DNA from: Minisyncoccota bacterium | GTDB lineage: Bacteria > Patescibacteriota > Minisyncoccia > Moranbacterales > UBA1568 | Direction: 5' to 3' | Length of the DNA stretch: 64,000 nt | Assembly: GCA_051306005.1 (NCBI GenBank) | Contig: JBPPMJ010000003.1 | Location: 249,396 to 313,395 of the forward strand | Shown: positions 32,098 through 35,699 of the stretch, in pieces | How the letters are laid out: each line of letters starts with the position of its first letter | How positions within the stretch are numbered: position 1 is the first letter of the stretch | The notes under the pieces: generated by a model | What the model was told of the DNA's origin: nothing | The model's database searches: none | What the model saw: only the letters and a program-made list of their open reading frames with translations | Translations under genes and position numbers: made by a program

Positions 32098-33582
32098 TTA
32101 TTGCAACGTTTTTTGTTTTTTTCTGAAAAGTTTGAGGAACGGAGCCATATCCTCAGTGCGAAGTTCACCGGATATTTTGAGGAAAACAAAATATAAAATA
32201 AACAAAAAGGCACCAGAAAAAAAGAAATTGAAAGTACCGTCAGGCAGAATAAATGACAGCATGGTAATAAAAAAAACAGCACAGCATGACAAAACAATGG
32301 TTTGTATGGAAAGAAAAACGTTGAAATGAAGTTTGGTATGGAATAGGATACCAAGCATCAGAAAAAAAGAAACAAGTGTGGTGGAAAGTGAGGCACCACT
32401 GATTCCCCACTTTGGAATGAGAAGAAAGTTGAGAATGATCATACCGATAAATCCGAAAAAAGTGAGACGCATCGGTATTTTGACTAGTCCCGCTCCATTG
32501 AGTGCAAAACTAAGCACATAAAAAACAGTCAGAAAGCCGACACCGACAGCAAAGATACTCATCGGTTGTACAGCTTGAGCATAGGCGCTTCCATAGAAGA
32601 GGTGGAGTATTTGTTTGGCATACACGATGAGTAATGTGACGAGTGGAAAAAGAAGTAAAACAAGTAAGCGCAGAGAGGTGTTGACGAGACTTTCAGTTTC
32701 TTTGTGTTTTCGCTCGGCGGTTGTTTTGGAAATAGCGGGGAGAAGAACAATGGTGAGGGCATAAAAGAGATAATATGGAATACGGCCGACAGTGATGGCA
32801 GCGCTGTAAATCCCGGTGAGATAATCATCCTTGAGGAGACTTTTCACGAAATATAAATCAAGTGTTGAGATGAGTTCGTAAAAAACCAGAAAAAAGGTCA
32901 GCGGTCCGGCATAGAGTAAAAGTGTTTTCCCTGAAAAGGCAACGGGTATCGTTTTTGGTTTTTTGGTCACGGCAAAGTAGCGGTGAGTGATAAAGATATC
33001 AGCGCATAACGCAATCAAAAACACAAAGAGGGGCGCGGCAATATATCCTGAGAGTGCGCCTTTGAGACCAAAAAAATAAGCGAAGAGAATAATAAAAAAC
33101 ACACGCCCAAGTGCGCGGAGAGTTTTGAGTATTGCTTGGAGTCTGAAAAAATGTAAGCCGGTAAAATAGTAGAAATAAAAAGATGCTGCCGCAAAAGCGG
33201 GGATAATGAGTGAGGAAAGTTGAAACAATGGTGTCAAAGTCATATCGGACAATGCCCACGCAATGAGTGGAGAAGCGAAAAAAAATACCACGGTAACACC
33301 AAACATCAGAAAAATCTGTAATTTTATCGCCTGACGCTTGATACCAAGGATACGTTCTGGCTCATTTTCAAAGACTTCGCTGAGGTATTTAGACATCGCT
33401 GTGGGAATACCATTGCCGATGAGAATAATAATCATCGTTGTGAGTGTCACGACTAGACTGAAACGTCCATAATCAGCTGGACCCAAGATACGTCCGACAA
33501 ACGAATGGATGAAATAACCTGCAAGATTAAAAATAATTTCAGAGATTGTGAGCCACACGACCGCTTGTGAAAATTTTTTCAT
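32098..33582 (-). CDS. Wzx-like oligosaccharide flippase (MOP superfamily, polysaccharide biosynthesis protein)
   Basis: It is 494 aa with about 14 TM helices. The N-terminus VVWLTISEIIFNLAGYFIHSFVGRILGPADYGRFSLVV is typical of the Polysacc_synt/Wzx family. Confidence 0.75.
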   Translation of the reverse strand: MKKFSQAVVWLTISEIIFNLAGYFIHSFVGRILGPADYGRFSLVVTLTTMIIILIGNGIPTAMSKYLSEVFENEPERILGIKRQAIKLQIFLMFGVTVVFFFASPLIAWALSDMTLTPLFQLSSLIIPAFAAASFYFYYFTGLHFFRLQAILKTLRALGRVFFIILFAYFFGLKGALSGYIAAPLFVFLIALCADIFITHRYFAVTKKPKTIPVAFSGKTLLLYAGPLTFFLVFYELISTLDLYFVKSLLKDDYLTGIYSAAITVGRIPYYLFYALTIVLLPAISKTTAERKHKETESLVNTSLRLLVLLLFPLVTLLIVYAKQILHLFYGSAYAQAVQPMSIFAVGVGFLTVFYVLSFALNGAGLVKIPMRLTFFGFIGMIILNFLLIPKWGISGASLSTTLVSFFLMLGILFHTKLHFNVFLSIQTIVLSCCAVFFITMLSFILPDGTFNFFFSGAFLFILYFVFLKISGELRTEDMAPFLKLFRKKQKTLQ

Positions 33583-34187
33583 AATTGAAGAGTAGTAATG
33601 ATATCTTGAAAAATACTTTCTTTGTGCTTGTTTGCATCAATAACTTTCAGGTGCCATGGGACTATTTTTTCTTGAAAGAGGACCTGTTTGGCGGTAAGGT
33701 ATGAGAGACCTTGTTCCGGAGCATTGGCGCGCGTCATAATAACAGTTGGATCAATATCAAGATAAAAAGCAATATCCGGTCGTGGCAATAGGAAAGTAAG
33801 TATCCGTCCAATCATGTTTGTTCGTCGGTTATTAGAGAGATAGGTCAGATTGATAAGAGAATCATACAATGATCGATCTGAGAGTAGATAATCATAATTT
33901 TCTTTTCTGAGCCGATGAAGTAGAAGTCGAAAACGGAGTACATCAAAAAATAAAAACTTCTCTCTAAGCAAAATGCTCAACCAAGAAGCATGAGTGACCG
34001 CTTTTTCCGTACCAGGTTGAAAATTTTTCTTGTTGGTGAAAAAACGGGCAATTTTGTTGGCAGATGAAAAATCAACCGCATGAAAATATGCGACACGCTG
34101 ATGATCATTTTCTAGTTTTTCCTTAAGAATGGTGAGTTGTGTGGACTTTCCTGATCCATCTACGCCTGAAAATGTAATGAAGCGCAT
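33579..34187 (-). CDS. Thymidylate-kinase-fold P-loop kinase (atypical: lacks canonical TMP-binding and LID signatures)
   Basis: The P-loop is ITFSGVDGSGKST. It has a DR(Y/S) motif (LLSDRSLYDS) and PDIAFYLDIDPTVIMTR. The region where E. coli Tmk has F-T-R-E-P-G-G-T reads instead YFHAVDFSSANK. There is no Arg-rich LID. It overlaps the flippase gene by 4 nt. Confidence 0.6.
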   Translation of the reverse strand: MRFITFSGVDGSGKSTQLTILKEKLENDHQRVAYFHAVDFSSANKIARFFTNKKNFQPGTEKAVTHASWLSILLREKFLFFDVLRFRLLLHRLRKENYDYLLSDRSLYDSLINLTYLSNNRRTNMIGRILTFLLPRPDIAFYLDIDPTVIMTRANAPEQGLSYLTAKQVLFQEKIVPWHLKVIDANKHKESIFQDIITTLQL

Positions 34188-34205
34188 AATTGAAAATCGG
34201 TAAAA

Positions 34206-35699
34206 TCAATACATGATAACTGAAATAGGTTGTAAGGTAGCAATCGGTTTGACGATGTCATTGGCGGTGACACTTTCTATGACATCCTCGGCTCGTTTGT
34301 AGTGCGAAGAATCTTGTTCAATGACCTTGGAAGAATGTCCATTGTAAAGTTTGACACCGCGTGTCGCTAATTTGGTACGTAGCTCTTCCGTATTTTTAGG
34401 AATGATTGATTCAGTTGTTTTGTGGGCTTTGCCGGCACCATGATTGCAAGAATAGAAGCTTGATGTATTCCCATCGCGGCCAACGCACAGGTACGCCTCT
34501 GTGCTCATGGAAGTGGGAATAAAGGCCGGTTCGCCCGTCTCACCAAATAGCGGGTGGTGCGACATACGCTCAGGACCATAAGCACGACTGGTACCATTAC
34601 GATGTACCCAGACTTCCTCGTCGTAATGTTTTTCTTGAGAAACGAGGATATGTGGCATATCATAGAGTAGGTCCGCTTCTACCGGTCGTCCCAGTACGGC
34701 TTCGGCCGTTTGAATGAAATTGTGTGTAATAGTTGCGCGATTAGCATGAGCAAAATTGGCACACGCATTGCGTGCTGACATGTAGAGAGTTCCATCGGCA
34801 CCATTGCCTTCAAAGGCGATAAGCGCTTCTTCTTTGCCAAAATTAGAGAGGCGAATTTTTTGAGCAATCGCGCGAATGGTATGACGATAAGGAGTGCGCC
34901 ACAGAAAACGTCCGATATTCATCAAAATGGCGGTAGAAAGGTGTTCACGTTTCTTGGCAGTGAACATATACATCGTATATTGTCCGAGGATACCTGATCC
35001 GCAATGTACCATCAACAAATATTGTCCCTTGCGAAGATTAAATTTTCGTGCCGTTTCCTCATCAAGAATATCTGATACTTTCATGAGATCGAGAAAATGA
35101 TTGCCAGCAGCTCCTATAATACCAGAACGGAATTGTGCAAAAAAGAGGAAAAGCGGAGGAATGAAATGGAGAATGCTCTTACGTGTCGGCGGTACGGTAA
35201 AAAAATTGCCCTGATCAATACTGTTGAGTGCTTCATTTTTGGTTTTGATACCGAGAAAATCAATCAAAGGCTGAATACCAAGACGACAAATATCGATGAT
35301 GATACGAAAAGGGAGTACCGTACCGATGTATTTTTTAGTCGGAATGGTTTTGATGGCAGATTGGAAAATACGATCAATTTCTTCTGGCGTGACATTGGTA
35401 TCATCGAGATCGAGACGAACCAGGCGCATACCACAGGCTGGATCTGAATCATTGAGTTGTGGCAAGATATGATTTTTGGAAGTGACCGTAGTACCTGTGG
35501 CATTTTTTCGTCCTGGTTTGGAGTGTACATCCGCCATGGCTGCGATATGATGAAAAATGGCATCATTGCCAGCGACACTTTCTAGTTGATTCATAGTGGC
35601 TTGACCTGGCATCAGAGCGTCTTGTATATGAAACACAACAGGCACTTTCATTTTTTCGCTTTGCCATTCGTTTCTGTGTGGTGTGAGTTTTCGTATCAT
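34206..35699 (-). CDS. rtcB: RtcB-family 3'-phosphate/5'-hydroxyl nucleic-acid ligase
   Basis: All RtcB signature blocks are present in order: AAMADVHSKPGRKNATGTTV (cf. VMPDVHLGKGSTIGSV), DPACGMRL (DIGCGM), IGAAGNHFLDL (GTGNHFIE), MVHCGSGILGQ (HSGSRGIG), ITHNFIQ (HHNY), SCNHGAGKA (CSHGAGR). An insertion of about 60 aa lies between the CGM and GNHF blocks. Confidence 0.8.
   Translation of the reverse strand: MIRKLTPHRNEWQSEKMKVPVVFHIQDALMPGQATMNQLESVAGNDAIFHHIAAMADVHSKPGRKNATGTTVTSKNHILPQLNDSDPACGMRLVRLDLDDTNVTPEEIDRIFQSAIKTIPTKKYIGTVLPFRIIIDICRLGIQPLIDFLGIKTKNEALNSIDQGNFFTVPPTRKSILHFIPPLFLFFAQFRSGIIGAAGNHFLDLMKVSDILDEETARKFNLRKGQYLLMVHCGSGILGQYTMYMFTAKKREHLSTAILMNIGRFLWRTPYRHTIRAIAQKIRLSNFGKEEALIAFEGNGADGTLYMSARNACANFAHANRATITHNFIQTAEAVLGRPVEADLLYDMPHILVSQEKHYDEEVWVHRNGTSRAYGPERMSHHPLFGETGEPAFIPTSMSTEAYLCVGRDGNTSSFYSCNHGAGKAHKTTESIIPKNTEELRTKLATRGVKLYNGHSSKVIEQDSSHYKRAEDVIESVTANDIVKPIATLQPISVIMY

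Follow-up and report, generated by a model that had tools for sequence, protein, structure and literature searches.

An RtcB-family protein and a Tmk-fold kinase in a conserved envelope-glycan gene cluster of candidate phyla radiation bacteria: a candidate phosphate-activation module

Why should a relative of the RNA ligase RtcB and a relative of thymidylate kinase (Tmk) be encoded side by side within a gene cluster for envelope glycans? The question is raised by a stretch of 64,000 nucleotides (nt) on contig JBPPMJ010000003.1 (positions 249,396 to 313,395), referred to in the following as the window. The source organism is a Moranbacteria-type bacterium of the candidate phyla radiation (CPR), and close relatives of the proteins encoded in the window are labelled Moranbacteria. 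According to the list of open reading frames (ORFs), four genes follow each other on the minus strand in the order glycosyltransferase (GT), RtcB, kinase and flippase:

35742..36920, minus strand: GT4 glycosyltransferase "GT4a", directly upstream of RtcB (Pfam Glyco_trans_1_4, Glycos_transf_1)
34206..35699, minus strand: RtcB-family enzyme of CPR type 1, 497 aa (Pfam RtcB; fold compared with 4dwq)
33579..34187, minus strand: Tmk-fold P-loop kinase without the motifs for binding of thymidine monophosphate (TMP), 202 aa (protein P0121; Pfam Thymidylate_kin)
32098..33582, minus strand: Wzx/MurJ-superfamily flippase, 494 aa, overlapping the kinase stop codon by 4 nt (Pfam)

We propose, with about equal weight for and against, that the RtcB-like protein and the Tmk-fold kinase form a phosphate-activation module that would act on a non-nucleic-acid substrate in a conserved envelope-glycan pathway of CPR bacteria. 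The locus had previously been described from its letters and translated reading frames only (hereafter the sequence-only reading), and the same-strand run and the distances given there, i.e., 42 nt between GT4a and RtcB, 18 nt between RtcB and kinase and an overlap of 4 nt between kinase and flippase, agree exactly with the ORF list. Terminator-like matches between 31500 and 43500 are all intragenic, occur in about the number found in shuffled sequences, and none of them splits the four genes. Promoter-like matches at the four-gene run are intragenic or chance-level consensus matches only. The mechanically called ORF for GT4a begins with TTG and overlaps the preceding small gene. As the orthologues have 369-378 aa, the true start is probably the ATG at 36869. 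When the sequence of GT4a was searched against the PDB, it returned weak generic GT4 matches only (sucrose-phosphate-synthase-like 6kih and PimB' 3oka). The flippase scores above the cut-offs of Pfam families Polysacc_synt, MurJ and MatE (83.9, 44.7 and 42.4 bits, respectively) and also matches Polysacc_synt_3.

The RtcB-like protein matches the Pfam family RtcB (PF01139) with 226.6 bits against a cut-off of 27, and the match extends over model positions 1-424 of 426. The AlphaFold model of the protein (pLDDT 93) aligns with the GMP complex of Pyrococcus horikoshii RtcB (4dwq) with a TM-score of 0.83, and the top 16 Foldseek matches to the model are all RtcB/RTCB structures. In the P. horikoshii enzyme, the metals are bound by Asp95, Cys98, His203, His234 and His329, and His404 in the H-G-A-G motif serves as the nucleophile. 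When the two sequences are aligned, the window protein presents D57/H59, D84/D86-x-x-C89, N200-H201, H232, H350, H366 and H420-G-A-G-K. Alignment and full-length Pfam match thus bear out the description in the sequence-only reading of a bona fide RtcB with all six signature blocks including HGAG(K/R). Of 155 distinct sequences of the CPR clade, 154 have the nucleophilic histidine, and nearly all have the metal ligands (154-155 of 155). Given the conservation of these residues across the clade, the RtcB-like protein looks like a working catalyst under purifying selection.

A conventional explanation has to be considered at this point. The protein could be an ordinary RNA ligase, re-joining rRNA or tRNA after removal of introns or insertions or repairing ribotoxin damage, and the kinase could be a housekeeping dTMP kinase, both being carried along in an ancient envelope operon. 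This is what a full-length family and fold match together with every catalytic residue would lead one to expect. CPR rRNA genes carry insertions, which also counts for an RNA ligase. We regard this explanation as unlikely, albeit one to be taken seriously, and the residues that contact the substrates are the first reason.

In P. horikoshii RtcB, Arg238 binds the first two phosphodiesters of the 5'-OH strand, and mutation of its E. coli counterpart slows RNA sealing 200-fold and RNAppG formation 3-fold only (PMC8051266). The window protein has a glycine (Gly236) in this position, as do 154 of the 155 clade sequences. Furthermore, His242 is replaced by Gln240, Arg190 by Phe187 in a hydrophobic stretch, and near the position of Gln194 there is only Arg191. 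In the alignment, the set of contacts to the 5'-OH strand (Arg238, His242, Arg190, Gln194) is therefore not conserved. Changes also affect the nucleotide. Glu206 and Lys480 of the P. horikoshii enzyme make the base-specific guanine contacts (PMC9745838, PMC3973293), with Lys480 contacting guanine O6, and the K480A variant is inactive without Archease (PMC3973293). The window protein carries Asp204 instead of Glu206 and Met496 instead of Lys480, and its C-terminus reads ...IMY rather than ...VKG. Asp204 and Met496 are invariant in Moranbacteria and near-invariant in the out-group loci introduced below. Further motif changes concern HRKGATRA, which appears as HRNGTSRA, and PGSMG, which appears as PTSMS. 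One substrate contact is retained: Asn202, which in P. horikoshii RtcB anchors the attacking hydroxyl (PMC8051266), has its equivalent in N200, kept in type 1 proteins of 80 of 80 Moranbacteria and 72 of 75 out-group loci. By family, predicted fold and catalytic residues, then, the window protein is a member of the RtcB family and, judged by its alignment, one without the guanine and 5'-OH strand contacts of the GTP-dependent RNA-sealing enzyme. Replacement of Arg238, His242, Arg190 and Lys480 argues against an ordinary RNA ligase.

In a rough neighbour-joining tree, the CPR clade forms a single group within a divergent RtcB branch, apart from the canonical RtcBs. This branch extends beyond CPR (P0253-P0293, e.g., P0261 from Calditrichia). 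In its wider part, PD(I/L)H(Y)K...PTG replaces PDxHxGYG, many members are without an Arg238 equivalent, and HGAGR and the ...KG C-terminus are kept. Within the CPR clade, two subtypes can be distinguished. Type 1, which includes the window protein, has GNHFLDL, HG[AT]G[KR] and a ...LMY ending. Type 2 has xSHF, HE[ILMF]GK and AP[FL] instead of PGSMG, and has lost the Tyr-Lys motif. The nucleotide pocket of type 2 is far more remodelled, and its equivalent of Asn202 is a serine. The nucleophilic histidine and the metal ligands stay. Both subtypes occupy the same GT4-RtcB-kinase triad, and the remodelled pocket of type 2 is a further point against ordinary RNA sealing. The type 2 proteins are P0245, P0246, P0251, P0392, P0396 and P0501, with the following loci:

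L167, 10001-11470: type 2 RtcB
L169, 10001-11500: type 2 RtcB
L172, 8001-9419: type 2 RtcB

A single lineage, comprising two sequences, departs from the conserved catalytic core. In P0252 (L168, 800-3767) the nucleophilic histidine is replaced by tyrosine and the GNHF motif is lost. Here the flippase gene follows RtcB directly, with no kinase between. This locus may represent a co-loss or a pseudo-enzyme. Since the only locus with a nucleophile-less RtcB is one without an intervening kinase, we count it in favour of a functional pairing of kinase and RtcB. It can also be read differently: the RtcB-like protein might be a subunit of the glycan machinery with a structural or regulatory function, given that P0252 without its nucleophile and GNHF still sits directly before the flippase, or it might cap nucleic-acid ends in a role unrelated to its neighbours, as RtcB paralogues are described with capping rather than sealing activity (PMC10630183). 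The degenerate case is confined to that one lineage, the catalytic histidine and the metal ligands persist in 154 of 155 sequences, and PADLOC yields no defence match for RtcB. We therefore consider a non-catalytic or otherwise unrelated role very improbable.

The kinase departs from its namesake family in a similar manner. It scores 48 bits with Pfam Thymidylate_kin (PF02223) and 49.3 bits with the NCBIfam equivalog for dTMP kinase (TIGR00041), which is under the cut-off of 83.25. It has the Tmk fold, the P-loop GVDGSGKST and an S-D-R motif. The REPGGT motif and the AYQG-type motif following DRY, both of which have roles in TMP binding in Tmk, are absent, and all orthologues have FHA(V/I)(D/E)FS and DS(L/I)IN..YL in their place. 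The lid contains one invariant arginine (R153) and no arginine-rich stretch. These findings match what the sequence-only reading had stated about the motifs present and missing in the kinase. Across 128 orthologues, G8, D10, G11, G13, K14, Q17, H36, R75, D82, F86, D104, R105, D109, L117, R153, Q159 and K167 are invariant. Two conserved arginines besides that in the lid would suit a substrate with an anionic group. A score below the dTMP kinase cut-off and the missing TMP-binding motifs speak against the housekeeping role assumed in the RNA-ligase explanation. In the public record produced by the NCBI annotation pipeline (PGAP), the window kinase is named 'dTMP kinase', which counts for that explanation; most orthologues are named 'hypothetical protein'. 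The name is likely an over-annotation that would mislead metabolic reconstructions. When Thermotoga maritima Tmk was used as a tblastn query against the window and the first 86 loci, the cluster kinase was the only match, and no canonical tmk was found among these sequences. The sequence-only reading had named a sole rtcB and a sole tmk in the genome with conserved substrate-binding residues as an outcome that would favour a coincidental placement of two housekeeping genes; what we observed is replacement of the 5'-OH strand and guanine contacts in RtcB and of the TMP motifs in the kinase.

Is the arrangement of the genes more than a local coincidence? The four-gene run is preceded by five genes on the same strand and faces a convergent gene at its downstream end:

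41594..42880, minus strand: UDP-glucose/GDP-mannose dehydrogenase family gene (UGDH), the first of the conserved cluster (Pfam UDPG_MGDP_dh N, central and C domains)
40393..41346, minus strand: GT2 glycosyltransferase, 317 aa (Pfam Glycos_transf_2; order conserved)
39310..40389, minus strand: GT4 glycosyltransferase "GT4b" (Pfam Glycos_transf_1, Glyco_transf_4; order conserved)
37315..39300, minus strand: polytopic membrane protein, 661 aa (window copy without Pfam match; order conserved)
36917..37294, minus strand: small conserved protein, 125 aa, with a single hydrophobic N-terminal segment (ORF list)
30547..32073, plus strand: convergent membrane protein, 508 aa (no Pfam match; often flanks the cluster)

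An alignment of RtcBs was used to scan one genome per species, which yielded 80 loci, all from Moranbacteria, with RtcBs 63-83% identical to the window protein. When the window proteins served as tblastn queries, nearly every Moranbacteria locus of sufficient length was seen to encode GT4a, RtcB, kinase and flippase on the same strand, and UGDH, GT2, GT4b, the 661-aa membrane protein and the small ORF are likewise conserved upstream. The interval between RtcB and kinase is occupied in Moranbacteria by 0-4.6 kb of variable inserted genes, e.g., a Wzy_C gene on the opposite strand. Out-groups were taken from a library of 50%-identity cluster representatives, the nearest of which are 52%, 42% and 41% identical to the window RtcB. 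With their alignment as query, metagenome contigs yielded another 80 loci, the RtcBs of which are about 42% identical to the window protein. Of these metagenomic loci, 70 have at least 800 nt of flank, and in 56 of the 70 a hidden Markov model of the kinase located it downstream in the same orientation; the entire upstream cluster (UGDH-GT2-GT4-DUF6541-small ORF) is kept in the metagenomic loci.

When all RtcBs were collapsed into 127 lineages of less than 90% identity (29-80% identical to the window protein), 90 of 100 lineages had GT4a upstream in the same orientation, and GT4a often overlapped the RtcB start. The kinase lies downstream in at least 99 of 113 lineages, with 32 gaps of 15 nt or less, and a Wzx-type flippase follows the kinase in 74 of 79, often with overlapping codons. 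In L169 and L172, a membrane protein of the LPG_synthase_TM type takes the place of the flippase. The triad, with overlaps of 4-8 nt, is also present in metagenome-assembled genomes (MAGs) labelled Parcubacteria group (L170, L175), BMS3Abin15 (L171) and Saccharimonadales (L169, L174), and the genes outside the cluster vary between these loci. The NCBI taxonomy treats Moraniibacteriota and Saccharimonadota as two distinct candidate phyla. The order RtcB, Tmk-like kinase, flippase, the recurrence of which in related genomes had been proposed as a check by the sequence-only reading, thus recurs in Moranbacteria, in metagenomic loci and in MAGs with other labels, and the GT4-RtcB-kinase-flippase order is not a matter of local chance. 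Persistence of a codon-overlapping linkage to GT4 and flippase genes across candidate phyla, despite shuffled flanks, counts against an RNA ligase that is carried along.

Some loci deviate from this pattern. L099 and L104 have kept the upstream cluster and lack the kinase; in L154 the kinase is absent and of the upstream cluster only GT4a is kept. MAG_322 contains two RtcB-kinase modules (L068 on JBPOHW010000006.1 and L086 on JBPOHW010000001.1), the RtcBs of which are 68% and 69% identical to the window RtcB. Either the module is truly duplicated, or the bin combines more than one strain. As to the accompanying genes, the order with UGDH upstream is kept in Moranbacteria and out-group loci, and the best minus-strand promoter-like match (42951-42923), a consensus match only, lies by the UGDH gene. 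By size and position, the GT2 protein resembles polyprenyl-phosphate glycosyltransferases of the ArnC/GtrB type. Orthologues of the 661-aa membrane protein in L001, L167 and L171 are tagged DUF6541/DUF1616. The 125-aa protein is conserved in position, with 26-47% identity among orthologues, and has no family match in Pfam or PADLOC. In 45 Moranbacteria loci and a number of out-group loci, the gene for the 508-aa membrane protein lies downstream of the cluster in opposite orientation.

Taken together, the codon-overlapping linkage to GT4 and flippase genes, an intact catalytic apparatus and replaced contacts to RNA strand and guanine lead us to suggest a use of RtcB chemistry outside RNA. In the mechanism that we propose, the kinase would phosphorylate a sugar, a polyol or a lipid-linked intermediate. 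RtcB would bind two Mn2+ ions at Cys89, His201, His232, His350 and Asp84 and load a nucleoside monophosphate (NMP) from a nucleoside triphosphate onto His420. The NMP would then be passed to the phosphomonoester, giving an intermediate activated by a nucleoside diphosphate (NDP) in the same chemistry that forms RNA(3')pp(5')G. In the favoured version, the translationally coupled GT4 would take the resulting NDP-X as its donor; alternatively, a hydroxyl group would attack on the enzyme and a phosphodiester would be formed. In either case, the adjacent flippase would export a product that would be lipid-linked, as the pair is in every case followed by a flippase, be it of the Wzx or the LPG_synthase_TM type. 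The NDP-donor version is favoured because without the Arg238 equivalent it is selectively the sealing step that is disabled, and because GalT, a member of the HIT family that makes NDP-sugars via a covalent His-NMP intermediate, shows the route to be chemically sound. Taken by itself, we hold this version to be possible, though doubtful. The sequence-only reading had speculated about a role of the pair in sugar or lipid activation with a GDP-linked product. Wide synteny and replaced substrate residues strengthen the proposal of such a role, and a GDP-linked product has become doubtful because it is the guanine-specific contacts that have changed.

The phosphodiester branch deserves separate consideration. 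Here, all three steps of the ligase reaction would be retained, and a phosphomonoester made by the kinase would be joined to a hydroxyl to yield a phosphodiester, with GT4 acting before or after. Products could be a teichoic-acid-like glycosyl or polyol phosphate link, a polyprenyl-phosphate-sugar or a phosphoglycolipid head group. In line with this idea, the hydroxyl-anchoring Asn202 is kept in type 1, the ever-present flippase suggests a lipid-linked product, genes for LCP and TagA-type wall-polymer proteins are found in the window, and no phosphoglycosyl transferase family appeared among the Pfam scans of the window ORFs. The window is a small part of the genome, so that the missing phosphoglycosyl transferase means little. 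In addition, Asn202 is a serine in type 2, and the tight coupling to GT4 would be left without a direct reason. To our knowledge, no such chemistry has been described for any glycopolymer. We judge this version improbable.

Several observations weigh against activation of a non-nucleic-acid phosphate, and most of them fit the RNA-ligase explanation. Loss of Arg238 is not specific for the clade: many RtcBs of the divergent branch outside CPR, e.g., from Calditrichia, lack it. No other protein of the cluster is as well conserved as RtcB, which has a median identity of 72% compared with 51-68% for the others, and the median isoelectric point (pI) of the CPR clade is 8.95, as basic as that of canonical, RNA-binding RtcBs (8.8). 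High conservation and basic pI fit a nucleic-acid enzyme equally well. Net charge or pI was considered as a proxy for RNA binding and dismissed, as 8.95 and 8.8 do not discriminate. Furthermore, the sub-clade of P0242 (L087-L094, e.g., L094 5415-10907 and L090 640-4168) has no adjacent kinase, and in L090 and L094 RtcB precedes the gene for cysteinyl-tRNA synthetase, with a release factor gene upstream in L094. Note that several loci of this sub-clade still keep the upstream GT4. Regarding the kinase, we know of no anomeric sugar kinase with an NMP-kinase fold. Finally, rsmH in the dcw cluster provides a precedent for an RNA enzyme placed in an envelope cluster. All points considered, we put the chances of RtcB chemistry having been recruited together with a dedicated kinase, as a new route to an NDP-activated or phosphodiester-linked envelope building block, at about half.

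What does the remainder of the window contribute? Pfam scans of about 54 window ORFs identify it as an envelope-glycan region. Seven GT4 genes, four GT2 genes, one WsaF-type transferase and four PMT/PMT_2 (GT-C) genes were recorded, and further membrane ORFs encode proteins of 508 aa and 565 aa without Pfam match and a DUF6541-type protein. In addition, there are two UDP-glucose-dehydrogenase-family genes, Wzy_C, the ATPase of a Wzt ABC transporter, an LCP ligase and a WecG/TagA transferase. Instead of the more than 20 GTs stated in the sequence-only reading, we count about 19 glycosyltransferase-type genes. A gene for an NDP-sugar pyrophosphorylase, said there to be missing, was indeed not detected, as none of the scanned ORFs gave a PF00483-type match. 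We do not accept this absence as evidence: the contig measures at least 494 kb, of which the window covers only 64 kb, and in relatives ManC or RmlA-D genes lie at a distance of a few kb from the triad. The window contains no tRNA gene and no Rfam family, and the Pfam scans of its ORFs named no family for RtcA, Archease or release factor. Neighbours of the rtcA, rtcR, archease or prfH type are likewise not found among the Pfam tags of the annotated loci, with the release factor occurring in L094 only. In PADLOC, neither RtcB nor GT4a, the membrane proteins or LigT had a match, and the kinase had only a weak P-loop match (VakA, 28.6 bits). Membership in a defence system was rejected, as no system was matched.

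Three further observations concern the surroundings of the module. First, the ORF at 56860-57408, described in the sequence-only reading as ThpR, is a LigT/ThpR-type 2H phosphoesterase according to Pfam. On the plus strand (56860-58121), it is followed after 5 nt by the gene for the WecG/TagA wall-polymer glycosyltransferase and then by gltX. The order LigT-TagA-GltX also exists in distant out-group loci (L154 5336-4092 and L100/L150 4407-3155), with identities of 34-39%, 37-51% and 50-51%. LigT is thus a second enzyme of the RNA-repair type that is syntenic with an envelope glycan gene. Second, a metallophosphoesterase recurs beside the module. In the window it takes the form of a PGA_cap domain ending a beta-helix protein (28206-30524, plus strand), and relatives have a Metallophos gene near the module (L005 15667-16710, L167 13797-14813, L169 7749-8816). 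It could be a phosphodiesterase or pyrophosphatase partner. Third, the GC content drops to 0.32 at 8001-12000, compared with about 0.40-0.46 elsewhere in the window. This stretch lies just downstream of the Wzt (Wzt_C domain) ABC-transporter gene, contains two methyltransferase genes and the gene for the WsaF-type transferase, and may be a horizontally acquired ABC-type polysaccharide cassette.

Searches of the literature returned no paper that connects RtcB with CPR, Patescibacteria, Saccharibacteria, glycosyltransferases, thymidylate kinase or polysaccharide biosynthesis. If the proposal of a phosphate-activation module is true, the pair would stand as the first candidate for an RtcB-type reaction on the phosphate of a sugar, a polyol or a lipid, and a new kind of envelope-precursor activation would be added to those by pyrophosphorylases, phosphoglycosyl transferases and CDP-alcohol transferases. 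A function would also be assigned to two genes whose automatic annotation, in hundreds of CPR genomes, reads 'tRNA-splicing ligase' and 'dTMP kinase', with consequences for metabolic reconstructions. Since CPR bacteria depend on hosts and scavenged building blocks, a salvage-type glycan activation would bear on the way in which they construct their surface.

How does the module compare with known systems? With canonical RtcBs (P. horikoshii PH1602, E. coli RtcB, human RTCB) the window protein shares the family, the fold, the two-metal site composed of a cysteine, three histidines and an aspartate, the Asn-His pair and H-G-A-G-(K/R). It differs from them in its strand and guanine contacts, in its C-terminus and in its fixed position between GT4 and kinase. 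No RtcB enzyme is known to us that acts on anything but the ends of RNA or DNA. Myxococcus xanthus RtcB3 is described as capping 5'-phosphate ends of DNA and RNA (PMC10630183). By that description, it sets a precedent for NMP transfer by an RtcB paralogue beyond the RNA 3'-phosphate that stops before sealing, with the difference that the substrates of RtcB3 remain nucleic acids. The cluster kinase is distinguished from Tmk (PF02223/TIGR00041) by its score (49 versus 83 bits), by an invariant set of its own (H36, R75, D82, F86, D109, Q159, K167) and by its constant linkage to the RtcB-like gene. The likeness of RtcB steps 1 and 2 on a sugar phosphate to GalT and the NDP-sugar pyrophosphorylases is one of functional analogy only; the folds are unrelated. 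The same logic of pairing a P-loop kinase with a nucleotidyl-transferring ligase is followed by T4 Pnk/Rnl1 and Pnkp/Hen1. However, the kinases of those systems produce 5'-phosphates for ATP-dependent ligases and the window pair resides in a glycan operon; a 5'-kinase would even work against RtcB, which needs a 3'-phosphate and a 5'-OH. A parallel in genomic placement, and the model for the RNA-ligase explanation, is rsmH (mraW) in the dcw cluster, an RNA-modifying gene conserved in an envelope cluster without a known direct envelope role. RsmH, however, retains the features for its RNA substrate, whereas the residues for substrate contact have changed in the window RtcB.

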